IMG/VR virus record: IMGVR_UViG_3300004633_000352
Location: 1-45,456 of that record
Source of the DNA: a virus
Lineage: Duplodnaviria; Caudoviricetes
Length of the DNA: 45,456 nucleotides
Strand: one strand, 5' to 3'
The notes under the pieces are model-generated. The model did no database searches and had not been told where the DNA came from. It saw nothing but the letters and a program-made list of their open reading frames with translations. Positions 4,214 to 44,682 of this stretch are shown piece by piece (the first letter of the stretch is position 1; each line of letters begins with the position of its first letter). A program made the position numbers and the translations under genes.

Positions 4214-4232
4214 ACGGCCAATAGTAGATCTC

Positions 4233-4321: not shown

Positions 4322-4379
4322 GGATAACAGGCGGGTCCTGGGCTGCTTTCACCCGGGTCACCGCCTGTTTCCATCTTTT
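4322..4379. terminator. Long hairpin between the repeat transcript and the convergent ORF
   Basis: AACAGGCGG...CCGCCTGTT stem with an inner CCTGGG/CCCGGG stem, followed by ATCTTTT. Confidence 0.5.
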
Positions 4380-4384
4380 GCCCC

Positions 4385-4666: not shown

Positions 4667-4792
4667 GCGTAAATAGCTTAATCCAGGCGCTTTAAAAAAG
4701 CATCCAGTCCCTAATGTGATTATGCTTGATGATGGCTACATGGACCTTCATACCTGGGCTCCTCGTTATAACCACGCCCGTTAAAATGGGTT

Positions 4793-7700
4793 GTGCCCGA
4801 CAACACGATCGAGTACTCGTTCAACAACCGCTCGATCGTCGAGGGTCTGGCCGAATTAAACAAGCTCTTCCAACAAACCTCAGAGAGCGCGGGCGATGTG
4901 GCCAGGCAGTGGTCGACGGCTCTGGCGGGCGTCGTCACGCAGGCCACCAACCTTAGTACCGCATACGTCAAGGCTACCGACCGGTCTACCAAGTCTCAGG
5001 AGCGGTGGCTCAAATCGCTCGAGCAGACCGCCGCCACCTACGGTAAATCGGGCGAAGAAGCGTTGATCGCCAAGCGGGACATCACTATCAAGCAGCTCGG
5101 CCAGCAGACGGACGCGATCAATAAGGTCAGAGCGGCGTACGACCAGATGATCAAGACCACGCGGGAGGCAGCCGCCGCCGGTGAGAGGCAACAGTCCCAG
5201 CGGCAGACCGAGTCGCGTGTCTCGGCACTCGAGTCGCGAGCCGCGGTGGCCGGCCTCGAAGGCGCGGACAAACGGCACGCCGAGGCGGAGTTACTGATCA
5301 AGGACCTGGGTGGCCAGACAGAGGCAATCAACCGGGTCATCGCGGCCACCGAGAGGCTCAACGCGGCTGAGGCCAAACAGACGCAGGGTTCCCAACGGGA
5401 GCAGGCCGAGCAGCGGATCGCGGCTCTCGAGCAGCGTAATGCACAGGCCTCTATGAGCGCCGCAGACAAGCTGGTAATGCGCGAGCGGGAACTGCTCAAG
5501 GGTGTCGAGGGTGAGGTCGGATTACGCGAGCGGGCCCGTGCCGCAATCGAGGCGGAGGCTCAGGCTGAGCAGAAGGCATTAGCGGTAGAGAAGTCCCGCC
5601 AGGCAGAGCAGAAGGTCATGGCCCTCGAGGAGCGAGCTGCCGTATCCCGTATGACCGGCATCCAGCGACTACGCCACGACGAGGCCAAGATGCTCCGCGA
5701 GATGGGCGATCAGGGCGAAGCGACTGCCAACCGGATCAAGCGGGCGTTCGCGGACCTGGCCAAGTCGCAGGGCGGCGAGGGCGGGGGTGCGGGCGTGCAG
5801 CTCCTCCGCGGGGCGCGCGACATCTTCGAAGGCCGGATGGCATACGGTGAGGTGCAGATCGGTAAGGCTCTGTCGTCTCTGTCCGGCGCCCCGATGATCA
5901 TCGGCGGGATCACGGCCGCATTAGTCGGTGCTGCCGCGGCCGGCTACAAGGCCGCCGAGTCACTCGGCGACTATGCCGTCAAGATCCACAACATCCAAGT
6001 CGTGACGGGTATGACTGCGCGCGAGGTGCAGCAATTCACCTTCGCGGCCAAGCTGACCGGCCAGGACTCCGAGATTGCCGAGCGCATGGTCCGCGGTCTC
6101 ACGCAGGCGATCGAGGATCAGGGATCGCAGGGACAGCGCGCGCGCGAGACGCTGAAGGGCATGCATGTGGATTTGCTCGCGCTCAAGTCTGGTGCTACCA
6201 CGCCGATCGAACTCTTCCAGCAGATCGCCACCCAACTCGAGCGACAGCCGAACCTGTGGATGCGGAACAAGGAAGCGATCGATCTCTTCAAACGCGCTGG
6301 CATCCAGTCTCTGCCGATCCTCGCGGAGTTCAACGACGCGCTCAAGAAGTCGGCCGACCTGGCCTTCCCGACGGACGCGCAACTGAAACGGTGGAAGACG
6401 ACTCACGAGGAACTAGAGAAGGTCAAGACCGAGTTTGACATCGTCGTGATGCACATTAAGGAGGAGCTCGCCACTCCGTTCAAGTTCGTGCTGGAATTCG
6501 TAGCTGCGGGTTCGAAGGATACCGTCACAGGCGCGCTGATGCGCGGGCGCATGGATGAGGTCTTGCAGAATGCGCTCAAGCAAGCCTATCCGGATACGGG
6601 ACCGCTCATGCAGGCGGCGACCGACAGGGCGCGGCAGCAGGCGCGCGAGGCCATGCCGCAACTGACGACTTCCAAGACGCCTTACCTGGCAGGACTGGCG
6701 AAGACGGACATAGAGGTGGCCGAGGCGGCCGCCCAGCGTTTGAAGAAGGTCTATGACGAGACGCGCGATGATCAGCTCAAGAGCGTAGCCGATACGCTGA
6801 AGGCCAAAAAAGCGTATGAGGATCAACTGGCGATCGTGACGCGTCTGCGGGACGCGGAGGCCCACCGCAAGTCGAACGCCGAGGCCCTCCTCAAGTTGCA
6901 GAGCGAGGCCAAGGAGAAAGCGGAACACCCATACGGCATGCTGCCGGCGGAGCGCGCGCTGATGGAGTATAAGGCGCGCCCGGGCGTCACCGCGCAACAG
7001 GTCGAAGCGGCGCGCCAGGCACTCCGTCCACAACTGGACGAAGAGGTGGACGCTATCCTGCGCAAGGCCGGACTGAAGCGGACTACCGTCGACGAGTGGA
7101 TGAACTCCGCACTCTTTGGCAGGAGCCCATTGGGACCGATCTCCCGTGATGCGATGCAGATCAGGGGCGCTCAGTTCAGCGGCGGTTTCGTCGGCCCCTC
7201 GCTCGATCTCACCGCCAAAGGCCAGCAGGAGCTCGAGGCCCGTGGCCGGCTGATGCAGGAGAACCTGAAACAGGAGAGCGATGCGAGCCGTGAGTACGTG
7301 CGTGCCGCCGAGGATGTGCTGCTCGAGAACCGCAAGCTCGCCCGGTTCAGTGAGGAGGGTCAGGCGCGTGTCGCTGGTATACTCGCTCCGGAGAGTCCGG
7401 AGAACCGGCTGGCCACGGAGAAGCGGATCCACGACATCCGCAAGCAGCAGGTCGCGGATGAGTACCGGGCGGCGAAGGCGCGAATCGCCGAGGATTACAC
7501 GGACAAGGAGCAACGCGAGACCCAACTGCTGCAGTTGAGGCTGCGCGCGTCACGTGAAGTAGCGGAGCTCGACGCGCAACTCGATGAGCAGCGTGCTACT
7601 GAGGTCCGGCGGCGCCTCGATGAGATCAAGTCCGCCACCGAGTCTTTGCTGCACACGCTCTTCACCAAGCCATCCGAGTTCGGCCGCCAGCTCGCCACCA

Positions 7701-9013
7701 CCTTGCGTGACGCGGTCCTACGGCCGATCGAGAAAGGCCTGGCCGAGCAGATCTCACATGCCCTATACGGAACCGTAGGCAAGATAGGAGGCATACTCGG
7801 TGGGATCGCCGGCGGTCAGTCGCCGCAGATTCAATCGACCGATATGAACACGGTCGCGACCAACATGAACACGGCGGCGATGCAGTCACTGGCCATGTCT
7901 TTGGGCGGTGCGGCCGGTATTGCCGGCTATGGCGGTGCCGGCGGATATGGCGGCTACTCTCCTGCCGGGGGTTATTCTCCTGCCGGCGGCTACTCTCCTG
8001 TTGAAACGGGTGGCTTCCCGGGCGGCGGCGGGGGCGGGGGCGGCGGAGGCGGCGGGGGCGGTATAGGCGCCGTCCTGGGAACCGGTGTCGCAGCCCCTGG
8101 AACCGGCAGGTTCGGCAAACTCGCGGCCGCGCTCGGCGGTATCGGCGGCGGTGGCATGATGGTCGCCAGGGACAGCCAGGGCGGCCTCTGGGCTACGGTC
8201 GGCAACACGTCCTACTCGATCGACACCCTCGGCGGCAAACTCAATGCGTTTGGCCATTCCGGCGTCGCCAAGGCAGGAGCCTTCGCCGGCGGCATGATGG
8301 CTGCCCAATACGGTCTCCTCGGTAGCAGACGCGGGACGACTGCCGGGACCCTCCTAGGCGCACTCGGAGGTGCCGGTATGGGCTGGTCGGTCGGCGCATC
8401 GATCGGCGCGGTCGGCGGCCCGCTCGGCGCGGCTATCGGTGCCGGCGTCGGTCTGCTGGTCGGTATCGGTGAGCAGATCGCCGGCGTCGAGACTCCTCAG
8501 CGTCACGCCAAGCGTCTGGTCGCCCAGCTCTACCACGTCTCGATCAACAACTCGATGGCCGACCAGATCGTACAGCTCGCCCAGCAGCGTTACGGCGGCA
8601 CGGTCTCGGTCGCGGTCCGCTCTCCCGAGGTGCGTGAGATGCTCGGGCTCTACGCGGCTGGTACAGGCCAGAGATTCGCCGCCTCCGCCATGACTCCTCA
8701 CGGCGGCAGCCTGGTCGAATCGGGCGGCCAGCTCTACCAGGGTGCCAGCTACCAATACGGCAACGTGTTCAGCTACTCCTCTGGCCTCCCCGTCTACGGC
8801 GGCGTCTCGGGCCAGCCACTCCCCTCGCCCGGCGGTGGCGGCAACACGTACCTGTCGCTGAACGTCTCAGGCGACGCGGTGGCCGACTTTATGACGGGCC
8901 AGTATGTGACCCCCGACCGCATCAGCGCGACGCAGCAGCAGGCCTACCGCTCGTCTACAGGACGCGTCCAGTCGGCTATGCTGCTCAACGAGCCGGGGAG
9001 CATAATCGCCTAA
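4793..9013 (+). CDS. Tail tape measure protein
   Basis: 1406 aa Ala/Glu/Arg-rich helical protein with a Gly-rich hydrophobic C-terminal part, in the canonical position; TAAAAT ends 5 nt before the GTG start (possibly leaderless). Confidence 0.92.
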   Translation: MPDNTIEYSFNNRSIVEGLAELNKLFQQTSESAGDVARQWSTALAGVVTQATNLSTAYVKATDRSTKSQERWLKSLEQTAATYGKSGEEALIAKRDITIKQLGQQTDAINKVRAAYDQMIKTTREAAAAGERQQSQRQTESRVSALESRAAVAGLEGADKRHAEAELLIKDLGGQTEAINRVIAATERLNAAEAKQTQGSQREQAEQRIAALEQRNAQASMSAADKLVMRERELLKGVEGEVGLRERARAAIEAEAQAEQKALAVEKSRQAEQKVMALEERAAVSRMTGIQRLRHDEAKMLREMGDQGEATANRIKRAFADLAKSQGGEGGGAGVQLLRGARDIFEGRMAYGEVQIGKALSSLSGAPMIIGGITAALVGAAAAGYKAAESLGDYAVKIHNIQVVTGMTAREVQQFTFAAKLTGQDSEIAERMVRGLTQAIEDQGSQGQRARETLKGMHVDLLALKSGATTPIELFQQIATQLERQPNLWMRNKEAIDLFKRAGIQSLPILAEFNDALKKSADLAFPTDAQLKRWKTTHEELEKVKTEFDIVVMHIKEELATPFKFVLEFVAAGSKDTVTGALMRGRMDEVLQNALKQAYPDTGPLMQAATDRARQQAREAMPQLTTSKTPYLAGLAKTDIEVAEAAAQRLKKVYDETRDDQLKSVADTLKAKKAYEDQLAIVTRLRDAEAHRKSNAEALLKLQSEAKEKAEHPYGMLPAERALMEYKARPGVTAQQVEAARQALRPQLDEEVDAILRKAGLKRTTVDEWMNSALFGRSPLGPISRDAMQIRGAQFSGGFVGPSLDLTAKGQQELEARGRLMQENLKQESDASREYVRAAEDVLLENRKLARFSEEGQARVAGILAPESPENRLATEKRIHDIRKQQVADEYRAAKARIAEDYTDKEQRETQLLQLRLRASREVAELDAQLDEQRATEVRRRLDEIKSATESLLHTLFTKPSEFGRQLATTLRDAVLRPIEKGLAEQISHALYGTVGKIGGILGGIAGGQSPQIQSTDMNTVATNMNTAAMQSLAMSLGGAAGIAGYGGAGGYGGYSPAGGYSPAGGYSPVETGGFPGGGGGGGGGGGGGGIGAVLGTGVAAPGTGRFGKLAAALGGIGGGGMMVARDSQGGLWATVGNTSYSIDTLGGKLNAFGHSGVAKAGAFAGGMMAAQYGLLGSRRGTTAGTLLGALGGAGMGWSVGASIGAVGGPLGAAIGAGVGLLVGIGEQIAGVETPQRHAKRLVAQLYHVSINNSMADQIVQLAQQRYGGTVSVAVRSPEVREMLGLYAAGTGQRFAASAMTPHGGSLVESGGQLYQGASYQYGNVFSYSSGLPVYGGVSGQPLPSPGGGGNTYLSLNVSGDAVADFMTGQYVTPDRISATQQQAYRSSTGRVQSAMLLNEPGSIIA

Positions 9014-9014
9014 T

Positions 9015-9455
9015 ATGCCAGGCGTACTCGGTCCCGCGACAGTCACACCGGCCTCTACCGTCCTGCCAAAGTCCCTCTCCACATCCTTCACCGAGACCCT
9101 GTCATACCCTCTGCTCGCCATCCAATATCACGACGCCACGATCGAGCGGTCGCTCATCACCGACACGGTCAACTCCCCCCGTCCTATCCGCTCCTGGGCC
9201 CTTACCAAGCGCCTGACCATCACGCAACTGGTGGCCCTGCGCAACCACTACGACGCCGTCGATTGCGGGCACCGGCCGTTTTATTTCTACGACCCGCTCG
9301 ATGTCCTGCCCGGCCAGGCCGAAGGCAGTAACTGGGACGGGACGGGGGCGAACACGCAGGGGAGAGTGACGGTTGTCATGATTGGGGACTGGGCGGAGAG
9401 CACTGCGCTGGGGCGGACAGACATACCACAGATACAAATGGTAGAAGTCCTATAA
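9015..9455 (+). CDS. Distal tail / minor tail protein
   Basis: 146 aa right after the tape measure; G..PFYFYDP motif typical of gpM/DUF2460-like proteins. Confidence 0.65.
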   Translation: MPGVLGPATVTPASTVLPKSLSTSFTETLSYPLLAIQYHDATIERSLITDTVNSPRPIRSWALTKRLTITQLVALRNHYDAVDCGHRPFYFYDPLDVLPGQAEGSNWDGTGANTQGRVTVVMIGDWAESTALGRTDIPQIQMVEVL

Positions 9456-9482
9456 CTGCCTACTCGCGGCCTGCTCCGAGAC

Positions 9483-9491
9483 TGTTATACT
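9483..9491 (+). promoter_or_regulatory. Extended -10 promoter for a short terminated RNA
   Basis: TG-T-TATACT. Confidence 0.5.
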
Positions 9492-9527
9492 GAGTTCATA
9501 GACGGCATTAGAACTGCGTTTCCAGCC

Positions 9528-9566
9528 GGGCCGGTAGGTGCTTCGCCACATACCGGCCCTTTTTTT
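9528..9566 (+). terminator. Rho-independent terminator inside the tail operon
   Basis: GGGCCGGTA/TACCGGCCC 9-bp stem followed by T7. Confidence 0.85.
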
Positions 9567-9602
9567 ATCGACTCATAACCCCATTGATAAAATTGACCTT
9601 GA

Positions 9603-12600
9603 GTGCCGACGCCGCCGCCTCCTACACCGCCGGACATGATAGGTCGTATCTCAGTCGCCGTCCCGCCGGCGTCCGGCCTGACCTTCCCATTCGTCACTGA
9701 CTATCCATACGGTATGGACCGCTCCTGGTCCGTCGTAACGCACCGCTTCGGCTCGCGGGCCACGCTCTCGACCCAGCGCTTCCTCGCCGGCATAGGACAG
9801 CGTCGCTTCCACTTCCAGAAAGCGACCATGTCACGGACCGAGCGCCGCCAACTGCTCGACTTCTACGACGCGATCCAGGGTTCGTATCAGACCTTCACCT
9901 ACAACGCCCCGGACCGTGTCGCCTCGACAGATCCGCTCCATCCATTCGCATACACCGAGATCACCACTCCGTATTCGGTCATCTGGGATCAGGCCCCGCT
10001 CTCGATCCGCGACTTGGCCACCATGTGCGCGACCGGCTTCTCGTTCATTGAAGCCGCTGATCCAGCTTCGGCACCTACCTATACCGTCACCTCGATCGTC
10101 ACGCGCTTCCCATCCTCCGGCCTCGCTACAGCCTTGCTCTCCCAGGTGCAGGAGCTGATCCCGCTCGTCGACATCCAGGTTCGCGACTCCTCCGTCCCGG
10201 GCGTTTATTTCAGCGACCGCCGCTGCACCCTCTCCGGCACCGGCCTCACCACCCACACCTACCTGCCGCGTGTGCTAGAGATCGGCGACCCCGGCGGCGA
10301 CGTGCTCATGTCGCAATCGATCTCCGGCCAGGCGGATTCCGTCCGGCTGGTATTCGGCAACGCCGACCGCGCCATCTCCCAGCTTTGTAACGACACATCG
10401 CTCAAGTATGCGGACATCGACATCTGCCTGTTCCATGTGCAGTCACAAACGCTCATCCAGTTGTGGAAGGGAGTCATCCTCGACTGGCAGGTCTCAGGTG
10501 GCCCGACTGTCCCGGTCACCTGCTCGGACGGGCTCTATCCGATCACCCAGCAGTATCCGCGGCGCACGATCAGCAGGCAGTGCTGGAAGACATTCAATGA
10601 CGGCGTAAACTGTCCGTGGTCCTCGACGCCCGGCCACACCGGCAACCCGAGCTCCTGCGACTTCTTCTTTAACTCCGCTAACGGCTGTCTCAGTCACGGC
10701 ATGGACCGTTACTTCGGTGGACATCCCGCGTTCCCGCAGACGGTCGTGATCAAAGATATCGGTGCCTCGAGCTTCTTCAACCAACAATTCGTGGCGAGCA
10801 CCTCGATCATCTCTGACTCGATCTGGGGCAGTCCATTATCCGAGATCTGGGCCAACGACCACGGCAGTCCGCTGAACGCCTTTATGGCCAACGCCGTGGT
10901 AGCCGCAGTGCGCGACGAGAGTACGTGGGAGGACGTGTTGGGCATCATCGGTGTCGGTCCGATCGGCGCCTATGAGGGTATGTCCGTCCAGACTACTACC
11001 GACGGCTACAAGTTCATCGTGTCGCCCATGGCCGATGGCTTTCCACCGCAGGGCTTCCAGGTGGACTCGCAGCTCGTCATCACCGGCTACCGCCCGGACA
11101 TGGGTCTGCGCGAGGTCCCTGGCAATGACCCTGTGTTGGCTGCCACCTCACTGACCAACGGTGCCGACCAGTTCTCTCTAGGGCACGGCACGCCTCAGCA
11201 ATGGGACGTGTACGATCCAACCTTCTCCAATATTCCCGGCATCAGCAACTGGATCTTCCCATATGCGGCCGGCACCGCGTTTGTCGAGCTGCGCTATGCC
11301 AAGGATGCAGGCTCAGGTCTCGCTCCGACCACCGCCGAGTCGCACACCATGGTGGTGCCACTCGCCAAAGGTCTCACCGGCTGGACCTTCAACGCGAGCG
11401 ATACCCGCACCCCTGTCGCCGGCCTGGTCAACCCGTTCTGGGTCGCTGTCAACAGCTACTTCCGCGCGCTCGGGATCCACAATGCTTCGGCCGCCACTCA
11501 ACTTGCTACCATCGTGCGCGACTCGATCTATAAAGGCGACGGCACCGGCTGTGCTGAGATCGCCGACCTGGTCGTGCCGGTCATCTTCGGCAGCGGCACC
11601 GAGATCCAGTTCCAGTTCCAGGGCTCGATCGCCGACTACAAGCCGTTCCGCGACTGGCTGACGGAGATTCTGGCCTGCGCCCTCGGTTACTATTCCTTCG
11701 AGTTCGGCAAGCTTCGGTTAGGCATCCGCGAGAATGCAGGTGCGACCGCCGCCTTCGGCTACGGCAACATGCTCTATCAGTCGTTGTCGATCCAACCGAT
11801 CGAGGCCGAATTCGAATATCTGCGCATGGACTTCGCCAACGTGGCACTGCAGTATCAGTCCGACATGGCGGAATACCAGGACAAGGATCATGCCGCGCAT
11901 TTCGGCCGCGCGGGTGCGCCTCTCACCTCCCGGCAGCGTAGCGTGGGGAGCTCGTCGCTGTCTCAATCCCTTCGCCTGGTCGCTACCCGCGTGCGCGAGG
12001 AGATCGGCGGCATCCTGCGGCCCGACCTCGCGAACCCTTATATCGAGTGGGACAACAACAACCGCGTCACATTCAAGTCGACCATCCTGGCTCTCGACAC
12101 GTATGTCGGCCAGGTCATCGAGGTCACGCACCCGGACCTGCCCACCTACCCCGGCCCGGTCGGCGGCACCCCATTAGCCGACAACACGTGGAAGTTTCGC
12201 ATCGAGAAGTGGACGCTGCATAAGGACTGGTCGGTTACCATCGTGGCCCGCTCGGTCACCGACTCGATGTACAACCTCGATTATGGACCTAAGCCTGCCG
12301 ACATCGCTCCGTCCGCAGTCCCTATCCTCTACTACCCGCAACCGCTCGGGCAGTGGGCCCCGCATAAAGTCCAGGCGGCGAGCAACGACGCTCTCTGGCC
12401 GAACGAGTGGACCTTCGATCTGAGGCAGACGTATCACGGCGCCCGCAACGGTGTGCCGATCTCCGAGGTCCTGGTCACCGGTTGCCTGCCGGTCAACCAG
12501 TTTGTCCCGGGATCCGGCGCGCCCGACGTCAAGAAAGGTCGCATCACGCAGAGCTCTACCGGCGGCTCGCTCCCCGGAGGCACTACCTACTACGTGCAGG

Positions 12601-14108
12601 TCACGGCTCTCGATGCGAGCGGCCGCTCCTCGCCCGCGAGCGAGGTCCTCATTATCCAGATCCCGTCCGGCACCAATACCAACAGCTTCACGCTGAACAA
12701 CATTCTGTGGCCGCGCGTCGACGGTCTGACGAACTACACCGTATTCGCGAGCGATCAGCCAGATCTGGTGTGTCAGCAGGGCGCGGCAGGGGCATTGACA
12801 GGCTCGGTCGCGACGGGTTACTCCCCGCTCGACATCACGATCACTGGACCATTCGAGCGGTCTACATACGGCGTCCCCAATCCGGCACTCGCCGCGGTGC
12901 GGGCGCGCTACAAGCGGCTGATTCACGGCGGCCCGGTCGGCGCGCAGGTCACTGGCATCACGACCTCGAGCATTACAGCCAACGACGCGATCGACTCCGC
13001 CGGCACGGATGACTGGACCGGTCGCGTGCTTAGTATCATCGGCCGCCAGAGCGGCACTGCACCCTTCGCCAACTTCAATATCACCGGCTTTACCACCTCG
13101 ACCGGTGTCTTCACCCTGGACCGCGACCCGATCGCCGCGGGCGTCCAGGTTAACGACATCTTCGTCGTCTGCTTCCTCGGCAACGACAACAGCGCGAACC
13201 CGTACGTGTTCTCGGATCTGGGGTTGAAGAACGCTACTAACCCTATCCCGCACGCCGGCGAGACCGTGAACGACCCGAACCGGATCGGCAACTCCGTGCT
13301 GGTGATCCGCGGCAAGAGTCGCGGCCAGCAGGCCAAGATCGTCAGCAACACGGCAACGTCCTATACGCTCGATCAGCCCATCACGATCGACGCGGGCTCG
13401 GTATGGGTGGTCGCGACGGCCGCATGGAACCTGCCGAGCGATGTGACCTTGTCGAACGCAGACCCCACCAAGTCGACCGACATCGTCATGCTCGTCAGCA
13501 ATTTCGCCAACCTCCCTATCCTGGTCGGGGTGAGTCTCGCCGATCAGAGCGCGGTCGAGTCTCCCGTCGCGAACATGCCGGTCCGCATGTTACACATCGT
13601 AGGCGCGCAGGGCACGCGCAGAACCTATGCCTCGACCATCTGGCTGACGACCGACCGGACGCTGATCTGCGACACCAGCCAGCTCACCAGCACGACCACC
13701 ACACTCTCCTCGCCGATCAACGCATCGACACTCACCATCCCGGTCGTAAGCGGCGCGTCCGTCGTCAACGGTACTTATATACAGGTCGGCTCGGAGCGGA
13801 TGCTGGTCACGGACGGCGCCGGCACATCCACCCTGACCGTCGAAGCTCGCGGCGGCTGGGGCACGACTGCGGCGAGTCATAGCCCGGGGGATACGGTCAA
13901 TATCCCCGCCATCCTCACCGTCACGCTGCTCGCAATCGGCGTCATGCCAGACCAGGAATGCATCGTGACCAAGGAGTCGAATGATCTGAACGTAGTGCAG
14001 GTTCAGGCTGCTACCGGCGACACACTGCCGAACGGCGCCACCAGCCTGCTCTTGCCGGATAACACAGCCGACCGCGGGACGTTATTCCTGCACGCACCAG
14101 GAGCTTGA
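9603..14108 (+). CDS. Large tail tip / hub protein (multi-domain fusion)
   Basis: 1501 aa; N-terminal Dit-like segment, Cys cluster (C..C..C..C..FGG) as in gpL/BR0599-type hubs, host-specificity-like middle, beta-rich C-terminus; TG-A-TAAAAT at 9585-9593 upstream. Confidence 0.8.
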   Translation: MPTPPPPTPPDMIGRISVAVPPASGLTFPFVTDYPYGMDRSWSVVTHRFGSRATLSTQRFLAGIGQRRFHFQKATMSRTERRQLLDFYDAIQGSYQTFTYNAPDRVASTDPLHPFAYTEITTPYSVIWDQAPLSIRDLATMCATGFSFIEAADPASAPTYTVTSIVTRFPSSGLATALLSQVQELIPLVDIQVRDSSVPGVYFSDRRCTLSGTGLTTHTYLPRVLEIGDPGGDVLMSQSISGQADSVRLVFGNADRAISQLCNDTSLKYADIDICLFHVQSQTLIQLWKGVILDWQVSGGPTVPVTCSDGLYPITQQYPRRTISRQCWKTFNDGVNCPWSSTPGHTGNPSSCDFFFNSANGCLSHGMDRYFGGHPAFPQTVVIKDIGASSFFNQQFVASTSIISDSIWGSPLSEIWANDHGSPLNAFMANAVVAAVRDESTWEDVLGIIGVGPIGAYEGMSVQTTTDGYKFIVSPMADGFPPQGFQVDSQLVITGYRPDMGLREVPGNDPVLAATSLTNGADQFSLGHGTPQQWDVYDPTFSNIPGISNWIFPYAAGTAFVELRYAKDAGSGLAPTTAESHTMVVPLAKGLTGWTFNASDTRTPVAGLVNPFWVAVNSYFRALGIHNASAATQLATIVRDSIYKGDGTGCAEIADLVVPVIFGSGTEIQFQFQGSIADYKPFRDWLTEILACALGYYSFEFGKLRLGIRENAGATAAFGYGNMLYQSLSIQPIEAEFEYLRMDFANVALQYQSDMAEYQDKDHAAHFGRAGAPLTSRQRSVGSSSLSQSLRLVATRVREEIGGILRPDLANPYIEWDNNNRVTFKSTILALDTYVGQVIEVTHPDLPTYPGPVGGTPLADNTWKFRIEKWTLHKDWSVTIVARSVTDSMYNLDYGPKPADIAPSAVPILYYPQPLGQWAPHKVQAASNDALWPNEWTFDLRQTYHGARNGVPISEVLVTGCLPVNQFVPGSGAPDVKKGRITQSSTGGSLPGGTTYYVQVTALDASGRSSPASEVLIIQIPSGTNTNSFTLNNILWPRVDGLTNYTVFASDQPDLVCQQGAAGALTGSVATGYSPLDITITGPFERSTYGVPNPALAAVRARYKRLIHGGPVGAQVTGITTSSITANDAIDSAGTDDWTGRVLSIIGRQSGTAPFANFNITGFTTSTGVFTLDRDPIAAGVQVNDIFVVCFLGNDNSANPYVFSDLGLKNATNPIPHAGETVNDPNRIGNSVLVIRGKSRGQQAKIVSNTATSYTLDQPITIDAGSVWVVATAAWNLPSDVTLSNADPTKSTDIVMLVSNFANLPILVGVSLADQSAVESPVANMPVRMLHIVGAQGTRRTYASTIWLTTDRTLICDTSQLTSTTTTLSSPINASTLTIPVVSGASVVNGTYIQVGSERMLVTDGAGTSTLTVEARGGWGTTAASHSPGDTVNIPAILTVTLLAIGVMPDQECIVTKESNDLNVVQVQAATGDTLPNGATSLLLPDNTADRGTLFLHAPGA

Positions 14109-14335
14109 AGGAAATGATGCCGACAAATACTGATCCTCCCGAAGCGGAAGTCGTTCTCCTCCCCCGGAGACGGTTATGGAAGGTCCTGCGATGCCCTTAT
14201 TGCGGAAAGGCGCATTATCACGGAGCGGGAGAGCGCAAGAGCGATCCGCGCAAATTCCTGGGTCACCGTGTGGCGCATTGTATGGACATTTCGCTCAAGG
14301 GCTACGTCTTGGTGGAGCGGTCTCCAGGAGCCTGA
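14105..14335 (+). CDS. Small zinc-finger-like hypothetical protein
   Basis: CPYCGKAHYHG...HRVAHC; basic protein inserted between tail genes. Confidence 0.6.
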   Translation: MKEMMPTNTDPPEAEVVLLPRRRLWKVLRCPYCGKAHYHGAGERKSDPRKFLGHRVAHCMDISLKGYVLVERSPGA

Positions 14336-14349
14336 CAGGAGCCTGATCT

Positions 14350-20627: not shown

Positions 20628-20729
20628 TCATAAATCCCAGCGCCGATTGATAGCCTGCTTGGCTGCCCAAGCGCCGAGCAGGACCAGGCCGATTGCGATG
20701 ATGCAGGCCGCGAGTATCACGCCGACCAT
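20628..20729 (-). CDS. Small single-TM protein (33 aa)
   Basis: MVGVILAACIIAIGLVLLGAWAAKQAINRRWDL; read directly, below the ORF-track cutoff. Confidence 0.45.
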   Translation of the reverse strand: MVGVILAACIIAIGLVLLGAWAAKQAINRRWDL

Positions 20730-20730
20730 A

Positions 20731-21456
20731 TCACGCCGACCATTGCTTGCGCAGGCCCACGATCAGCGACGCGGCGCCGGCCATCATGCCCCACGTGCCG
20801 GGCTCGGGCGTTATGGTGTGCACTGTCGGGCCGAGATTACTGAGCGTGAACGTCGACTGGATGTGCCCGCGGCCGGTAAAGTTGAGCTGCGTGATGGCTG
20901 TCAGCGAGCCCGATGGAATCACATTGAGCGAGCTGTGCACGTAAGTGTCGACGCCGCTCAACGAGAAGCTGTCGAACGGCGCGCCGGCCTCGAGTGCATT
21001 CGCGGGATCGATGAGCGCTTCGCCGACGACCGTCGATCCGTTGATCTGAGCGTCGGGGTTGCTCTGCACGCTGAGTTGGAACGTATTGGCCAGCAGCGTG
21101 TAATCGGTGTCACTGAACTTTACCGTCAGCGTGCCGGCGCCCGTGCTAGTCGCCTCATTCTGCGTCAGGTTCAGAACCGTCGGCGGGATCAGGCCGGCAA
21201 GACCGACGCCGCTCACGGTCGTCAGCGTGAACATGCCGATCGTGCCGGTCACGTTGAGCGTCCCGTGCGGCGTGACGCTGCCGGCGAAGGTCAGCCCGCC
21301 GCATGTGCCGCTGCAGGTGACGGCGCCCACATTATCGACCAGCAGATCGGCAACAAAGCCGCCGCCGGCATCGATCGTCATCTCCGTAATGGTCGCTGCC
21401 TGAAGTGAGATCGCCCCGCAGAGCAGAACGATCGAAAGAATTGCACGTTTGATCAT
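20731..21456 (-). CDS. PEP-CTERM sorting-domain protein
   Basis: N-terminal signal peptide; C-terminal TPEPGTWGMM + TM helix + basic RK; SD GGAGG. Confidence 0.92.
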   Translation of the reverse strand: MIKRAILSIVLLCGAISLQAATITEMTIDAGGGFVADLLVDNVGAVTCSGTCGGLTFAGSVTPHGTLNVTGTIGMFTLTTVSGVGLAGLIPPTVLNLTQNEATSTGAGTLTVKFSDTDYTLLANTFQLSVQSNPDAQINGSTVVGEALIDPANALEAGAPFDSFSLSGVDTYVHSSLNVIPSGSLTAITQLNFTGRGHIQSTFTLSNLGPTVHTITPEPGTWGMMAGAASLIVGLRKQWSA

Positions 21457-23761: not shown

Positions 23762-23823
23762 AAACCCTCCCTTGTTAGCGTCCCTTGTTAGCGCTGATAA
23801 AATACAGAGGTCGGAGGCGTGTG

Positions 23824-23971: not shown

Positions 23972-24484
23972 CTAGTCTTCCTTGTCCTCATCGTCTTTTT
24001 TCGAGAGGTCCCTGACCCTGACATCCAGGTACTCCTTCCCCAACGTGTAGCAGGCCTCTAGCTCTTCGACCGTGATGTACTCGATCAGCTTCTTCTTATC
24101 CAGATTCTTCCGCCGCTTCATGCCGCCGTAATAACACGCCACTTGGCCCCACCGCATGCCCGGCACGCCATACTTCGCGGCCAGCGCCCCGAGCTCGCTC
24201 TTGAGTGCAGTCCGGGCCTCCTTCACGTCCTTCTCCTGCGCGGCGAGCGAGACCTCCTCGCTCAGGAGGTGGATCGCATAGTCCATGTCGGCGCGCGTGA
24301 ACTCGGAGACGAGCGGGAAAGTATCCGCGACCCGGGATGGCGGTGGCGGCTCGGCGGCGCCCGCGAATGGCGTCATCCCGGGGAATGGCTGCTGTCTCGT
24401 ATCATCGGTCACTCCCGGTTTATCCGGTTTATGACCTCTACGTGGCTTGTAACCCATAGCTCCCGCACCTGCGGCTTTACTCAT
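23972..24484 (-). CDS. Hypothetical protein
   Basis: 170 aa, last gene of the replication operon. Confidence 0.65.
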   Translation of the reverse strand: MSKAAGAGAMGYKPRRGHKPDKPGVTDDTRQQPFPGMTPFAGAAEPPPPSRVADTFPLVSEFTRADMDYAIHLLSEEVSLAAQEKDVKEARTALKSELGALAAKYGVPGMRWGQVACYYGGMKRRKNLDKKKLIEYITVEELEACYTLGKEYLDVRVRDLSKKDDEDKED

Positions 24485-24494
24485 TGTTTCACCC

Positions 24495-26897
24495 TCACTG
24501 TTTCATCCACCTTTCCATCACATCCCCATCACTCGTAATCGGCACCCGCATGACACACTTCCCGCTCATCTCATCATTCATGCATGTCTCCATCGCCATC
24601 CCCATCCCCTCGCACACCACATCCGCATAGTCCTCTTCCGCCTCCGCCATGATGGCGTCGTGGATGGTCAAAAGCGGCCAGCACCAGACACCATCCGCGT
24701 ACAGGTCCTCGAGCATGTCATTCACCTTGCCCATCGAGAGCTTGAGGTGGCCGGCCGCGGTCGAGGTCACGCTCATGTTCTGTGCCTGCCTGAGCCCGGC
24801 CTCCCTGATCCAGGCGTGCGTGGAGGCGACCTCGGGCACCAGCCGGATGCGGCCGAAGCCGTCCCAGACCATTCCGTACCGCCGGGCTCTGTACCAGCAG
24901 CGTTCGAAGTACAGCCTGACCTCGGGCCGCGAGTCGAGCCACTCCTCGATGAACTTCCGGCACCACTCTTCGGTCAGCCAGTCCGGCACCGGGATCTTAC
25001 TCGCCCCGAAGTCCATGACCAACTGCATATACAACCCCTTCTCGGTCCCCCCATTTTGTATGGAAAAATTGGTTCGTTTAGCCGCCATCCGGTGTTTGAT
25101 TTTGTCTGGCTTCTGGTCCCACGGCACGCCTAGTGCCCGATGACAGGTATCGTCGTGGATGTCGCCGCCATCCAGGTAGACCTGGATCATGCTTTGGCAG
25201 TTGGCGAGGTGCGCCAGGTCCCGCAACTCAATCTGGCTGAGGTCCCGATTGATCAGCCGCTTGCCAGGTGGAGCGATAAAGCCGGCTTGCACTAATTGAC
25301 CGTCCTCGGTGCGCGTCGGTATGTTGCCGCAGTTTCCAGTGACGTGCACTTTCCCATTACGACGCACCAGCAAGATCGTCGACGGCACCGAAACGCAATA
25401 GACGTCGTCCGAGTAAGGCACCACATCCTGTTGCCGGTTGGTGGTTAAACTGTACCCGTTCCGGCTGACGTCCGCGCTCCAGAAATGGCAGCCGGCAGTG
25501 TTCACGCGTGCTCGCACGGCGGCCCTTCTACCATTCAGTGTGAATAAGGTCGCAACTACATCAGCATTATGTTTGTCGATAGAGGCGTACTTGTTTTCCG
25601 ATACCGAGTCGCCGTCCCACTGCATGAACTCTTTCATCGCGACCGCTGCCTGCGCCTTGTTTAGTGAAATGAACAGTTCGATAGGCAATCGCTTTTCCGT
25701 CCCTAGCAACTGTTTCACCCGCTCCACGAAAGCTTCGTTTTCCACGGCGCTGATGTAAAACCGTATGCGTCCTTCTCCGTTCTGGTGGCTTGTATAACGA
25801 ACGCCGAGCTCTTCGAGAATTCGGGTCAGCCTCCTGATCTTGCGCTGCTTCTTAAAAGCGAAGTCGATAGCCCGCCGGCTCCAACTTCCGTCCGCCTGCA
25901 TGGCGATCAGGAAGGCCAACATAGCGTCTGTGTATTCAACGCCAGATCCATAATGCTCACCTGAGTTCCACTGCCTATAGTCTTCCGGGTAGTCTTCCGC
26001 GTGGTAGATGAACCAGTTATTGCTATGCTGGTTTTGCAACAGGCACCGGTGGTCGCTCGTAGTCAACAGGTCGATCTGGTCCTCGGTGTGGTTCCAAATC
26101 AGTCGTTCCGCAAAATATTGCACGCGTCCGGTTGGCTTCACGAACCGGATCATTCCCCCTCCGGCCGGTGCTCCTACAGCAAATTCCCATTGGGCGACCT
26201 CGCTATCGGGCGCGAGCTCGTCGAAGCGGACCCAGCCTTTTGGCGTCAACACTTCCGTGTCGCGACTGAAGCAGTTAGGGTTCTTGTGGTTGATCCTGCC
26301 AGTCTCCGCCCTGGTCGTCCCCATCTCCCCGTGCACCCGCCACTGGTCGGTCTCATGCGCGAGCTCGCACACCGGGCAGCACGCACTCCTCGGATGGAAC
26401 CTGGCGAGCGCCGGCAGTTTGTCACTGTAGGTGGTCCGCAGCTTGGTCAGTTCTCTGTACCGGAGCACGCGCGCCACGACCGGGTGCTCTCCCTTGACCA
26501 ACTCTAAGGACCGCTTTCCCGTACTGACCGCGCCCTTAGACGTCCGCTTGAGCCGCTTATCCGCGCCGAGGCCGAGCACGTCCCACAGCAGCTTCCCCAC
26601 CTGCTCGGCACTGGCCGGGTTGATCGACGCATCCCCGCCTTCCTCCGCCTCCTCCAGTGCCAGCGACCGGCTGGTGAACTCATCCACCTTGTCCGGCGGG
26701 ATGTAGTCGGCGATCTCGCGCTTGACTGCCTCGGCCTCCCGGGCGAAGCGGGCGGACAGGTCCGCGAAATACTCTTTATCGATCGCGATACCGAGACGCT
26801 GGGCCCGCCGGATCATGGGGATCGCCAGCAGGTCGAGACGTCTTACGTTCTCGAGGTCGGGATGGCCGGGGAATTCAATGGCGGCGTAGAGTGACAT
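24495..26897 (-). CDS. polA: Family A DNA polymerase, polymerase domain only, intein-containing
   Basis: TGR, NPN/NIP, motif A DLSQIELR, motif B RMAAKRTNF, motif C IHD; no exonuclease domain in this ORF. Confidence 0.93.
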   Translation of the reverse strand: MSLYAAIEFPGHPDLENVRRLDLLAIPMIRRAQRLGIAIDKEYFADLSARFAREAEAVKREIADYIPPDKVDEFTSRSLALEEAEEGGDASINPASAEQVGKLLWDVLGLGADKRLKRTSKGAVSTGKRSLELVKGEHPVVARVLRYRELTKLRTTYSDKLPALARFHPRSACCPVCELAHETDQWRVHGEMGTTRAETGRINHKNPNCFSRDTEVLTPKGWVRFDELAPDSEVAQWEFAVGAPAGGGMIRFVKPTGRVQYFAERLIWNHTEDQIDLLTTSDHRCLLQNQHSNNWFIYHAEDYPEDYRQWNSGEHYGSGVEYTDAMLAFLIAMQADGSWSRRAIDFAFKKQRKIRRLTRILEELGVRYTSHQNGEGRIRFYISAVENEAFVERVKQLLGTEKRLPIELFISLNKAQAAVAMKEFMQWDGDSVSENKYASIDKHNADVVATLFTLNGRRAAVRARVNTAGCHFWSADVSRNGYSLTTNRQQDVVPYSDDVYCVSVPSTILLVRRNGKVHVTGNCGNIPTRTEDGQLVQAGFIAPPGKRLINRDLSQIELRDLAHLANCQSMIQVYLDGGDIHDDTCHRALGVPWDQKPDKIKHRMAAKRTNFSIQNGGTEKGLYMQLVMDFGASKIPVPDWLTEEWCRKFIEEWLDSRPEVRLYFERCWYRARRYGMVWDGFGRIRLVPEVASTHAWIREAGLRQAQNMSVTSTAAGHLKLSMGKVNDMLEDLYADGVWCWPLLTIHDAIMAEAEEDYADVVCEGMGMAMETCMNDEMSGKCVMRVPITSDGDVMERWMKQ
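25332..26273 (-). mobile_element. Intein (314 aa) with LAGLIDADG-type endonuclease region
   Basis: Starts CFSRDTEVLTPKGW, block B TSDH, ends VYCVSVP...RRNGKVHVTGN before an extein Cys; LIAMQADGS and FMQWDG motifs. Confidence 0.93.
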
Positions 26898-26944
26898 CGT
26901 TTTCGGTTATAGTCTGTTTTCGGTTTATAGCTGGCTGGGGGTTT

Positions 26945-27100
26945 GCTACAGGCATACTCCGCTCCCTCCATTACCGCCTGTCACGACCAGCGAGTCAGTG
27001 TTGGTTGGGAATCTTCGCTACAGGCATCCCGCACCGCCAGCATTACCGCCGCACTGGCATCCCCATTACCGCCTGTTACGACCAACAAGCTACGACCAAC
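26945..27100. repeat. Mosaic of short direct repeats between the two polymerase genes
   Basis: GCTACAGGCAT x2, CATTACCGCC x3, ACGACCA x3. Confidence 0.7.
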
Positions 27101-27114
27101 GTTATTCATGAACA

Positions 27115-27354
27115 TCATACGATTCCCACGCGGCCACCCCGCCCCACCCGCTCATCACCATCGATACATCTGGTGCCGCGCGACAACTCCATCGCGATCC
27201 GGCGCCGTTCGGAACACTTACCCGGATGTCGGGTGAGGAACCGCCGCAGGCCTGCCCGCCCGCAGGAGGCGCCGCAGGAACACACCGCGCCACCGGTGTC
27301 CGGATCGACTGCGACTACGAACAGGTTCTTGTCATCCGTCACGTTCTCAGTCAT
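27115..27354 (-). CDS. Small Cys-rich hypothetical protein
   Basis: ATGA-coupled to the UDG-exonuclease gene; CSCGASC..H..C. Confidence 0.5.
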   Translation of the reverse strand: MTENVTDDKNLFVVAVDPDTGGAVCSCGASCGRAGLRRFLTRHPGKCSERRRIAMELSRGTRCIDGDERVGRGGRVGIV

Positions 27355-28973
27355 ATGTCCCAGTCCTCCTTCTCTACCTTCCACCGCTCGCTCTCCCTCC
27401 CCTGCTTCAGCGCGGCCGCCACCTGCCCGGTCCAGTCCGCATCTCCGCACCCGTACCCGACCGCCTCCTCTATCCGGCAGTTCCCGATCCCGAGGATCGG
27501 CATGGGCCCGCAGGCCTCTTCTATCGCCTCCCACTCACCCCGGGTCGCGCATTTGCCCCTGAGTCCGGCCACTTCCATCTCGCGCAGCTTTTTCCAGGGG
27601 TGGTAAGGCTCCTCGTCGTCCTCGGTGCGGACGGTATGGGTCAGGAGATGGGTGAGGATCCGCTCGACCGCTCCCGGTCTGTAATCCGTTCTTTGCCACG
27701 TGACGTTGTTAGATTCGCATCCACACTTGGTACCGCTGGCCTTATTCCCGCATTTTTTAGCGACGTACACAGGACCGGATAGGCTGTCCTCAGACGCGAG
27801 CAGTACGCCGTGGCGGTGACCGCAGTCTAAACACAGCGGCTTCTTCCACTCCGTCGTCACCTTTTCCGTCAGGTGCTCGGCGGCAAACGTGATCCCGTCC
27901 TCCATCCACTCGCAGATAGCTTTGACACTGGCCGGCCACACCACGTCCTCCCAGCTCCGCATGTTGGCCCCGAACAACCGGTATGCGAGTGGCTTGAGCC
28001 CCTGCGGCAGTGAGCATTGGTGATAGGCTTCCTGCATCGTGTCGCGATATCGCGGCACCCGGACGCCTAGCTTCTCCAGCGTGTCAAGGTCGCCTACCGC
28101 GTTGTGCAATACGGTCCGTACTACCGACGTGCCCAGGTAAGCCGCGAGCACCTCAAGCGCGCGCTTATTGTCCGCCCGGACTAGCCGCCCTGTATGCGCG
28201 TGCACCGAGAACTGCACCGACCATGGCTCGCTACCGTGCTTTTCCGTATCGACCGGCGGGTGGTAGCTCCAGTCGTCCTCGGGCCGTCCCCATGCGCCGT
28301 GACTCGCTCCGCCCAGACTGATATATTGCTTGAGCAGCTGGATGTCGTGCCGCGTCTCGCCGACCAGCTTGTAATCGAGCGCGTAGTCCTTGGGCGCGGC
28401 CGGCTGCCAGTCCCCGCGGATCCACTCGCCGAGCCTTCGGAAATCCTCGAGTAACTGGGTCATGCGGCTGGTCTCGCGCATGCCGAGCGCCGGCTCGTAC
28501 ATCGGCACCACCCACCCCGACCACAACCCGCCGACGAGAGTGGTCCGCTGCGGGATGCCGTGGTGCATGTCCAGGCGGATCCGCATATCGCATATCCGCT
28601 GGGTCACGCCGCCCATCAACACCACGATCTTCGGCTCTACCTGCCAGAGCAGCTCCGGCACGTGACAGTTCGCGCAGTCGAGGACGCGTGATTCGGCAGG
28701 TGTGCGATCGGTGCCGTCCCAGCACAGCGTTGCGTTCCCAATGTGGATATCGTCATCGTGCATCCGGGCCGCTATTAGGTACGTCTTGCGCAGCTCATCG
28801 CCCGCCAGGCCCGAGTATGGGATCCCCGTCTTAGCCTCGGTTTTGGCCGGCCCGGCACCCAGGAACAGGATGGGGCAAGGTGTAGGTCCGGCACTCATGA
28901 CCTGAGGGCACTCGCTCGGACGGTCGAGTGCGAGGGCGGGACAGGACTCACAACGCGTGTGCGATATCGTCAT
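27351..28973 (-). CDS. Family-4 uracil-DNA-glycosylase-like domain fused to a DnaQ-like 3'-5' exonuclease (N-terminal half of an SPO1-type PolA)
   Basis: CxxC plus two further Cys, LFLGAGP..E..G.P..G..G, N..C, PKIVVLMG; ExoI DTE, ExoII HNAVGD, ExoIII YGCGD. Confidence 0.85.
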   Translation of the reverse strand: MTISHTRCESCPALALDRPSECPQVMSAGPTPCPILFLGAGPAKTEAKTGIPYSGLAGDELRKTYLIAARMHDDDIHIGNATLCWDGTDRTPAESRVLDCANCHVPELLWQVEPKIVVLMGGVTQRICDMRIRLDMHHGIPQRTTLVGGLWSGWVVPMYEPALGMRETSRMTQLLEDFRRLGEWIRGDWQPAAPKDYALDYKLVGETRHDIQLLKQYISLGGASHGAWGRPEDDWSYHPPVDTEKHGSEPWSVQFSVHAHTGRLVRADNKRALEVLAAYLGTSVVRTVLHNAVGDLDTLEKLGVRVPRYRDTMQEAYHQCSLPQGLKPLAYRLFGANMRSWEDVVWPASVKAICEWMEDGITFAAEHLTEKVTTEWKKPLCLDCGHRHGVLLASEDSLSGPVYVAKKCGNKASGTKCGCESNNVTWQRTDYRPGAVERILTHLLTHTVRTEDDEEPYHPWKKLREMEVAGLRGKCATRGEWEAIEEACGPMPILGIGNCRIEEAVGYGCGDADWTGQVAAALKQGRESERWKVEKEDWDI

Positions 28974-28976
28974 ATG

Positions 28977-29939
28977 TCAGTGCCTGCCGGCAATGTCTTC
29001 ATCATCCGTCTCCGGGAATGGCTCGAACTCCCGGCACATACACGGCCGCTCATCGGTGCCACCGAGACAGTAACTGTGATCGTCCTCTACCTCGTGGTCC
29101 GACTCCTTATGGGTGCATTCATGACACAGATCCTGTCGTTCACCTTCGCGCCACGCCGCTACGATCTTCTCCGCGGTCTCTCTCCCTATCCCGGGCTTGC
29201 GCCGGCCACCCTTGGTCAGCCCAGCTTCTCTGACCTCCATCCACTCCTCTACCGTCGCATTGGCCATACGCCTCCCCGATCCGAAATGTTTCGCGGCCGC
29301 GAGAGCTCTCCTATCGAGCGCCGGACACTGGGCCGCGAACTTCCAGGCATACGTTACCTTCTCCTGCACTATCCCCACGCGGCCGCCGGGCGCCACTCCA
29401 CTCATCGGCCCGGGTGCATAGATCTGATCGTGCGCATGGTGCTCATCCCACGTCTTCTCGGTGAATCCTTTGTAGAGCGCGACTAACCACGCCGCGGTCT
29501 CACGCGCATTGTTGGTTCGCATCACCCGTAGCGGCTCGCCTATCGACGTCCGGCAGCGCAGAGTCAGTGAGTTCAGGTAGGCGGCGGCCTGGCGATAGGA
29601 GACCGCCATCCGGTCGCGGCCGTAGAACGGCGCGAACACATTTCCCCTGAGCCAATCGATTGCGCCGCCAGGCCCGGGCCGCCATTGGTCCTCGACCACC
29701 AGCCAGAGGTAGTCATAGCTCTCGACACAGCCGCGGAGCTGAGACCCGGTCAGGCGCCGGTCGGTCATCGAGTTGATCAGATCCTGCAGACGCTTGCGCT
29801 CGACGCCGATGGTGGATCTGCCGCACTGGCCATGGCCCTCGAAGGTATAGTCGCCGTACTCGAGACGCGTGACTTCGAACTCGATGTCCAACTTTCCGAG
29901 CTCGCGGCCGAGGTCCTCGCGATCGTCTACGATCAGCAT
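28977..29939 (-). CDS. ERCC4 (XPF/Mus81-type) nuclease with HhH
   Basis: VDDRE, GDY, VERK..DL..S..D.R motifs; PGIG HhH; Cys/His-rich tail. Confidence 0.88.
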   Translation of the reverse strand: MLIVDDREDLGRELGKLDIEFEVTRLEYGDYTFEGHGQCGRSTIGVERKRLQDLINSMTDRRLTGSQLRGCVESYDYLWLVVEDQWRPGPGGAIDWLRGNVFAPFYGRDRMAVSYRQAAAYLNSLTLRCRTSIGEPLRVMRTNNARETAAWLVALYKGFTEKTWDEHHAHDQIYAPGPMSGVAPGGRVGIVQEKVTYAWKFAAQCPALDRRALAAAKHFGSGRRMANATVEEWMEVREAGLTKGGRRKPGIGRETAEKIVAAWREGERQDLCHECTHKESDHEVEDDHSYCLGGTDERPCMCREFEPFPETDDEDIAGRH

Positions 29940-44599: not shown

Positions 44600-44682
44600 A
44601 AAAGCGAAAGGCCCCAGGAGTTACCAGCTCCCGGGGCCCAAAACTTCGAAAGGACTGAACGATGCCGATGCAAGCACCGTAC
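44600..44682 (-). ncRNA. Candidate antisense RNA over the SD and start of the initiator gene
   Basis: - strand promoter TTGCGA(44717-44712)-17 nt-TACACT(44694-44689); terminator stem 44610-44638 followed by TTTCGCTTTT. Confidence 0.55.

Follow-up and report, generated by a model that had tools for sequence, protein, structure and literature searches.

The polymerase locus

The DNA analysed here, called the window throughout, is the 45,456-nucleotide Caudoviricetes record IMGVR_UViG_3300004633_000352 of IMG/VR, a phage fragment that is 64% complete. Its minus strand holds a gene for the polymerase half (thumb, palm, and fingers) of a split family-A DNA polymerase (PolA), interrupted by an intein, and an upstream partner gene encoding a UDG-like domain (UDG, uracil-DNA glycosylase; family 4) and a 3'–5' exonuclease domain (Table 1). 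The fingers of this polymerase are the subject of the present work: Asn replaces Tyr at position 766 and is accompanied by further changes that recur in its relatives. Klenow numbering follows the Bst/Klenow equivalences given in passages of PMC10520511 and otherwise the usual numbering, while Taq numbering was counted from a phmmer alignment to Taq Pol I.

In a profile search, the polymerase open reading frame (ORF) matches PF00476 with 204 bits against a curated cut-off of 34.3, and its best PDB matches by phmmer are Taq, Klenow, and Bst. The ORF starts with the thumb, the UDG-like and exonuclease domains being encoded upstream, and since the intein-free homologues are mostly about 450–515 residues long (117 homologues), the split is family-wide. 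The exception is G007 (L131:9185-12073), whose UDG, exonuclease, and polymerase domains are encoded together by a single open frame of 970 codons. As a structural stand-in for the window enzyme we used its intein-free relative P0004, which is 71% identical over the C-extein. The AlphaFold model of P0004 has a pLDDT (predicted local distance difference test) score of 92 and a template modelling (TM) score of up to 0.77 to KlenTaq/Bst; judged from this model, the window enzyme is predicted to have the Klenow fold. Its sequence places it as a family-A polymerase that is UDG-PolA-like but split, and not as a DpoZ.

The acidic residues of Exo I, II, and III are intact in all 24 aligned genome rows, the window included. 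Of 23 genome rows, 20 retain the Glu of UDG-A and the His of UDG-B (motif names as used in passages of PMC13697223); the three that do not are the window, G006, and G015. In the window and in G006 the Glu has become Ala and the His has become Glu, and the UDG of both is probably inactive or altered in specificity, as far as these motifs tell. The surrounding replication module (ERCC4 nuclease, Sak4-like protein, helicase, ParB-like protein, and AAA protein) is common to relatives with Asn766 and with Tyr766, hereafter Asn and Tyr alleles or genomes.

The window intein has Cys1, a terminal Asn, and a +1 Cys, the last accounting for the L676C change, and the insertion is absent from homologues at large, although its site is shared with P0015. 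Two LAGLIDADG-like motifs are recognizable by eye. No intein model of Pfam or NCBIfam matches it, and PHROG gives only weak matches to host-protein families; the intein is predicted to splice.

Table 1. Coordinates of the polymerase locus, of inteins in related loci, and of repeat examples (window positions unless a locus is named)
Feature	Position	Strand	Remarks
Polymerase half (thumb, palm, fingers) of split family-A DNA polymerase	24495..26897	(-)	800 aa including 314-aa intein; PF00476
Intein, Cys209 to Asn522	25332..26273	(-)	+1 Cys at L676 position; in-frame insertion relative to homologues
Partner gene, family-4 UDG-like domain and 3'–5' exonuclease	27351..28973	(-)	PF03167 and PF01612
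UDG-A Glu to Ala	28854-28856	(-)	partner gene; alignment
UDG-B His to Glu	28494-28496	(-)	partner gene; alignment
R668 of TGRINH	26295-26297	(-)	sequence read
N670/H671 of TGRINH	26286..26291	(-)	second, subgroup-level set with G677 and A883; alignment
G677	25326..25328	(-)	+2 residue after intein; same Gly in intein-free relatives; alignment
Motif A, D705 to E710	25227..25244	(-)	intact; alignment
F762	25065-25067	(-)	retained; sequence read
N766 (Klenow Tyr766, Taq Tyr671)	25053..25055	(-)	codon AAT, preceded by Q765; phmmer alignment
Phe at Taq I707 position	24906..24908	(-)	coupled to N766; register from phmmer alignment
Q844 (Taq F749)	24780..24782	(-)	coupled to N766; Tyr sister alleles mostly Gly; alignment
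T849 (Klenow Gln849, Taq Gln754)	24765..24767	(-)	coupled to N766; alignment
Motif C, His881-Asp882-Ala883	24654..24662	(-)	A883 codon 24654-24656
O-helix/O1 tract, putatively moved by recombination	24918..25118	(-)	holds low-GC3 patch and empty 759/760 intein site
764/765 intein with +1-frame HNH ORF	L101:10869-11750
764/765 intein with +1-frame HNH ORF	L104:11046-11840
764/765 intein with +1-frame HNH ORF	L223:1518-2315
759/760 intein with +1-frame HNH ORF	L215:1979-2842
759/760 intein with +1-frame HNH ORF	L217:246-1091
Tandem duplication examples	4153-4187, 14325-14346, 20715-20743, 23768-23793

Coupled substitutions in the fingers

At position 766 of motif B, where Tyr or Phe is a conserved feature of the family rather than a catalytic requirement, the window enzyme has Asn. 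The alignment to Taq Pol I sets N against Y671, T against Q754, A against E786, and G at the Q582 position, which confirms the register of N766, T849, A883, and G677; all the substitutions listed in the original prediction, TGRINH among them, are present as stated there. Both catalytic Asp residues as well as R754 and K758 are intact, as had been reported, and the kept residues as a whole comprise D705, E710, R668, R754, K758, F762, N845, H881, and D882. The AT-rich patch described around N766 is also real: three of 11 codons there end in G or C, whereas the share averages 0.82 over the gene (p about 1e-4 in a binomial test, for a stretch picked post hoc).

In an alignment of 143 rows, the residues at 766 and 849 are N/T in 81, Y/Q in 55, Y/T in three, F/Q in two, and M/Q and N/Q in one each. 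Leaving aside 11 distant rows (P0111-P0120 and G011), all 81 Asn rows have T849 and Q844, neither of which is found in any of 51 Tyr/Phe rows; Phe at the Taq I707 position is likewise present in all 81 Asn rows, and in one of the 51. I707 and F749 of Taq are presumably in contact. A held-out set of 26 new proteins from a later search repeats the pattern, with N/Q/T at 766/844/849 in 11, Y/G/Q in 12, F/G/Q in two, and one gapped. D705, E710, R668, and R754 are present in all 143 rows, and D882 in 142, the remaining row having a gap. In a smaller alignment (A1) of rows picked as Asn-type, N766 is invariant (57/57).

A second set of changes (N670, H671, G677, and A/S883) is characteristic of an inner subgroup that comprises 57 Asn rows. 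H671 occurs in 59 rows, and 57 of these have N766 with G/S/A677 and A/S/C/M883. The original prediction had raised the question whether N766, T849, and A883 are conserved in the clade: N766 and T849 go together within the family, and A883 marks one subgroup, although residues other than the canonical ones at 883 and 677 are found elsewhere too.

How unusual these residues are was gauged against 119 distant PolA loci, a background selected by similarity to the family. Position 849 is Gln in 117 of them; position 766 is Tyr in 72, Met in 26, Phe in 19, and Asn in two; position 883 is E in 86, D in 16, A in nine, S in seven, and Q in one; and position 677 is Gln in 83. Because the background is nearly all Gln849 and has only two Asn766, Q849T and Y766N are rare changes, whereas A883 and G677 carry little weight because E883 and Q677 vary in other PolAs. 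The original prediction was right in seeing an active site altered in an unusual and non-random way. Residues other than Tyr at 766 are also found outside the family among uncultivated phages.

Two further variants came to light in these alignments. A Met766 lineage of mostly UDG-fused PolAs, with Ser/Ala845 and mostly Leu677, makes up 26 of the 119 background loci (L016, L029, L230, L234, L240, L242-L249, and others); as read from the alignment, it is a second natural remodelling of the template pocket. In motif C, His881 is replaced by Tyr in five of 143 rows, namely G015, G022, G024, and G025, which are all Tyr766 enzymes, and one further row.

Probable mosaic history of the O-helix tract

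In a family tree made without the trait columns, the Asn rows are found at three places. Segment tests, likewise without the trait columns and in P0004 residue numbers, used a selection of rows from across the tree (15 Asn, 21 Tyr/Phe). A single Asn clade is rejected by the approximately unbiased (AU) test for residues 1-200 (p-AU 0.0006), 346-420 (0.016), and 421-486 (0.026), as well as on the pooled flanks (p-AU 4e-76), and is not rejected for residues 280-345 (p-AU 0.51) and 205-278 (0.52). By sliding identity, P0066 and P0071 are nearest to G017 in most flank windows but to the Asn rows between about 211 and 345; in the G004 group the switch falls at about 286-330. In the segment with Q844 and T849, the Asn rows group by their own backgrounds.

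The simplest reading of these trees would give the O-helix tract one origin and a transfer into at least three backgrounds, with Q844 and T849 on each occasion re-acquired or carried by very short conversion. The left border of the tract may reach to about motif A. The low share of G/C-ending codons in motif B of the window is the pattern expected of a conversion tract. A test of third-position G/C content (GC3) over 27 rows of related sequences, with the Tyr allele L209 counted among the Asn rows, gave 0.61 vs 0.70 (p=0.0008). From the alignments and segment trees, a coupled and selected remodelling that was spread by recombination appears likely.

Inteins segregate with the alleles

An intein family found at the O-helix points to a possible driver. 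It occupies the O-helix between residues 764 and 765 (764/765), directly before Y766, in eight distinct Tyr sequences (P0110, G019, G023, G024, P0143, P0147, P0149, and L236, three of which are fragments) and in no Asn sequence. At 759/760 the same family is present in 10 Asn precursors, which differ from one another and belong without exception to the inner subgroup, and in no Tyr sequence; the intein tree separates the two sets (support 85/90; 10 + 3 rows). All five O-helix inteins whose DNA was examined have a +1-frame HNH nuclease ORF overprinted on the open intein frame. Most Asn alleles (72%) have Gln at 765, a residue that cannot act as an intein +1 nucleophile. An out-of-frame nuclease within an intein has been described for cyanobacterial dnaX (10.64898/2026.09.14.751524), and according to passages of PMC11620839 a phage can escape an HNH homing nuclease by altering a conserved Asp beside the insertion site in the PhiKZ RNA polymerase. 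The O-helix intein family also occurs in the helicases P0150 and P0151. The idea that N766 is a leftover intein terminal Asn was dropped, as two deletions are required where one base change suffices.

A model for the Asn alleles

We propose the following model. Loss of Tyr766 would abolish the aromatic template gate, in which E710 is the partner, and Phe at the 707 position, Q844, and T849 would repack the template pocket and so compensate for N766. The remodelled enzyme, its polymerase half assembled with the UDG-exonuclease subunit, would then likely copy ordinary DNA with near-normal, proofread accuracy. Such near-normal fidelity fits the opposite effects of the two laboratory changes on T:G errors, which Y766A raises and Q849A lowers; it is plausible that N766 and T849 act in opposite directions as well. 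Asn alleles would be spared by the HNH nuclease that the intein inserted directly before Y766 carries, and in a mixed infection a nicked or cut Tyr allele would be repaired from the immune Asn allele, Q844 and T849 then being re-acquired in each background. In one Asn subgroup the intein family would later have come to occupy the site five codons upstream.

What is observed, and underlies this model, are the residues and the way they occur together, catalytic and exonuclease motifs that are intact, segment trees that conflict with one another, and intein sites that differ according to the allele. Its descriptive part, that is, the model minus nuclease escape as the driver, we regard as quite probable. 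The whole (a catalytically complete split enzyme with four fingers changes and roughly normal accuracy, a tract spread by recombination, and nuclease escape as the driver) comes slightly short of an even chance. Homing escape is the preferred driver of the Asn alleles but is unproven, and the fuller history, in which Asn766 arose as an escaper of the HNH intein, was rescued by three compensating changes that give the family-A template pocket a second natural geometry, then spread by gene-conversion sweeps through at least three lineages, and was chased by the intein family to a site five codons upstream, is tentative and, taken in all its steps, somewhat doubtful.

Several points weigh against the model. 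Sequence-specific homing would by itself also lead intein sites to segregate by allele, and synonymous changes might in principle be enough for escape, leaving Y766 untouched. In P0148, a distant Tyr766 UDG-PolA, that intein family is inserted at a third O-helix site, 760/761, so that intein retargeting needs no Asn; furthermore, no 759/760 intein was found in the two recipient Asn groups. The pairing of residues is broken by G011 and L261, which have N766 with Q849, and by P0112-P0114, which have T849 with Y766, and the coupling is therefore confined to the family and is no universal rule. The rows are related to one another, with about three independent events among them, and eight of the 143 are near-duplicates. 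The segments are short, the trees are quick or FastTree ones, and since they are unrooted, some events could be re-imports of Tyr instead of gains of Asn. Finally, a DNA donor for the low-GC tract was not found among 13 loci, whose third positions are saturated.

Alternative explanations

A first alternative is that the remodelled pocket changes how the enzyme handles abasic sites produced by its own UDG. KlenTaq Tyr671 is reported to template purines opposite a gap, and loss of this Tyr would alter or slow A-rule bypass. UDG-PolAs are described in passages of PMC13697223 as excising dU and then bypassing the site with dA, and the conservation of the UDG-A Glu and UDG-B His in most genome rows is in keeping with such a role. 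So is the Met766 lineage with its S/A845, which is UDG-linked in most members (20 fused and one separate among 26); among 71 Tyr loci of the background, 56 have no apparent UDG. However, the association amounts to two or three independent events only, in a background set chosen by family similarity; an intact UDG is equally present in the Tyr sister alleles; and the window and G006 lack the UDG motifs yet retain N766. We consider this explanation unlikely.

The fingers tract might instead have spread through escape from a defence of the host that is directed at the phage polymerase, by sensing it or by blocking it (Borvo-, AbiQ-, or DarTG-like), or from CRISPR priming on a conserved stretch. 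The repeated movement of one tract into different backgrounds would suit such a pressure, and escape mutations in phage DNA polymerases as well as polymerase swapping are reviewed in PMC11348598. By contrast, three of the changed residues are expected, from the Taq register, to be buried near the active site, and the GTDB genome scan for a host gave only relatives with identity of 35% or less. A defence-driven spread thus seems rather improbable.

The original prediction had suggested a low-fidelity, slippage-prone enzyme as a candidate source of the tandem duplications in the window. Its premise that Y766 and Q849 contribute to fidelity is sound: in passages of PMC3715850 the Y766A Klenow fragment has lowered fidelity and is a T-dGTP mutator, and in those of PMC10520511 the Q849A variant is less prone to T:G misinsertion. 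The duplications are real as well. The window has 13 perfect duplications with a unit of 10-40 nt (2.86 per 10 kb, against a Markov expectation of about 0), and 14 of its 21 duplications with a unit of eight or more lie between called genes or at their edges. With 22 such perfect duplications in G007 (in L131-L133), the two highest counts among 26 records both belong to Asn genomes, the other 24 having 0-7, and in both the window and G007 many lie at gene boundaries. The raw microsatellite density is also higher in Asn genomes (p=0.015 and p=0.036). The proposed cause nevertheless fails on comparison. Between Asn and Tyr genomes the duplication density shows no difference (p=1.0; median per 10 kb 0.33 in 12 Asn records and 0.19 in 13 Tyr records, G011 omitted), and the 10 other Asn genomes, at 0-0.75 per 10 kb, fall inside the Tyr range of 0-1.15. 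Two of them, G006 and G003 (76 kb, the closest complete relative), share N766, T849, G677, A883, and H671 and have no duplications at all, and 11 further family loci have two in 98 kb. The microsatellite difference disappears after Markov normalisation (p=0.24), and root-to-tip lengths of six other replication genes show no excess (2.39 vs 2.21, p=0.48; nine Asn and nine Tyr genomes plus an outgroup); like the intact exonuclease motifs, these are indirect proxies for fidelity. That such a polymerase made the duplications is accordingly very unlikely.

Adaptation to a modified base during replication (Z, 5-hydroxymethyluracil-derived, or 7-deazaguanine), the other function that had been put forward, fares still worse. 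In its favour, the sole departure from Tyr in the classification literature, as represented by passages of PMC10201439 and PMC8599892, is Phe in both DpoZ clades; UDG-PolAs are present in T-modified phages (PMC13697223, in part); and some relatives, Asn and Tyr genomes alike (G001, G007, G008, and G015, G021-G025), have clusters of glycosyltransferase genes with methyltransferases and sugar epimerases, in many cases close to the replication genes, whose substrate may be DNA or a virion protein. Yet PurZ (PF00709), thymidylate synthase (PF00303), GTP cyclohydrolase I (PF01227), and dCMP deaminase (PF00383) are each absent from all 26 records, with controls positive and seven near-complete Asn genomes included, in a search that contained no six-frame scan aimed at ThyX, DpdA, dUTPase, MazZ, or DatZ. 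No gene family is present in all Asn genomes and absent from the Tyr genomes. Some genomes of either type have glycosyltransferases; the window and G003 yielded none in a scan that covered shared-family representatives plus Asn singletons of 110 aa or more. The DpoZ models score 36.8 bits against a cut-off of 350 and 36.2 against 500. Even allowing for the incompleteness of the window and for many genes without annotation, which temper these negatives, the explanation is highly improbable.

Lastly, a sequencing error or decaying gene, as a one-base change from Tyr to Asn inside an AT-rich patch might suggest, has a negligible chance of being the cause, given N766 in 81 family rows and 11 held-out proteins, both Asn codons in use (AAC at 22 and AAT at four of 26 Asn loci), locus L001 identical to the window over 16,834 nt, and contigs from three of four runs, possibly themselves the source of the window sequence, that cover 24400-29000 with no differences.

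Other features of the window and its relatives

By eye, imperfect repeats can be made out in the spacer between the two polymerase genes (26898-27350), which may also contain a small ORF with Cys that stops at 27115; the spacer could be an origin or regulatory region. At the end of the window, an open frame at 44662-45456 (+) has PHROG matches to replication-initiator O-like proteins and contains 12-nt and 9-nt tandem repeats. A 241-residue, secreted-looking protein at 20731-21456 (-) without a Pfam match ends in a PEP-CTERM-like tail, a hint of a Gram-negative, possibly acidobacterial, host. The one replication module is joined to two unrelated structural gene sets, one in the window (97-14108), G003, G006, and G013 and the other in G001, G002, G004, and others. 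Among cultivated phages, the best records are at 35% identity or less.

Comparison with known systems

Tyr766 is called universally conserved in family A, where it forms a template gate with Glu710, in passages of PMC3715850, and in those of PMC3715850, PMC8599892, and PMC10201439 it is universally or strictly conserved save for Phe in DpoZ. A literature search of titles, abstracts, and passages, with few subscription journals and no supplements, found no paper on a natural PolA with Asn766 and Thr849. The more than 90 natural Asn766 sequences, with partner changes constant within the family, offer a test of whether the gate is replaceable without loss of accuracy, for which the closely related Tyr enzymes are ready controls. 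They are also candidates for engineering, for instance towards lesion bypass or analogue uptake. If homing escape is indeed the driver, a selfish element has reshaped a polymerase active site in nature; if assays in vitro find an unremarkable enzyme and a nuclease that cuts Asn and Tyr alleles alike, N766 is a clade marker of modest interest.

With bacterial Pol I (KlenTaq, Bst, and Klenow) the window enzyme shares the fold, as judged from the P0004 stand-in, motifs A, B, and C, F762, and the catalytic Asp pair; it differs in N766, T849, Q844, G677, and A883, in the separate exonuclease gene, and in an identity of about 30%. The UDG-PolAs of SPO1-like, SP15-like, and N4-like phages likewise join a family-4 UDG to a 3'–5' exonuclease (PMC10201439 and PMC13697223, in part), but in the window the polymerase is a separate gene, the UDG motifs are replaced, and the fingers are remodelled, and neither a thymidylate synthase nor a dCMP deaminase homologue was found in the 26 records, the incomplete window among them. 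The DpoZ enzymes of phiVC8-like and Wayne-like phages also depart naturally from Tyr at motif B position B4, and phiVC8 has a small residue at 883, where passages of PMC8599892 note Ser for T5 and DpoZ. However, DpoZ has the conservative Phe where the window has Asn, PurZ is missing from all 26 records, and the scores are far below the NCBIfam DpoZ cut-offs. Split T7-like PolAs (S-SBP1-like; PMC10201439, in part) share the division of exonuclease and polymerase between two genes, but the window has Phe, not Tyr, at 762 (B3) and a UDG fused to the exonuclease half; its best matches suggest a separate lineage.

A close parallel to the proposed driver is the HNH nuclease PhiPA3 gp210 and the PhiKZ gp178 D1072 escapers, for which passages of PMC11620839 describe an HNH insertion beside a conserved polymerase residue and escape by changing that residue. 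That case is experimental and concerns an intron in an RNA polymerase, whereas the present one concerns an intein in a DNA polymerase, putative cleavage by its nuclease, and natural, fixed alleles with partner changes. The positions involved are also those altered in the Klenow laboratory mutants Y766A/S and Q849A. These mutants, however, are single engineered changes, whereas the window family combines four natural changes that are conserved down to 45-50% identity.

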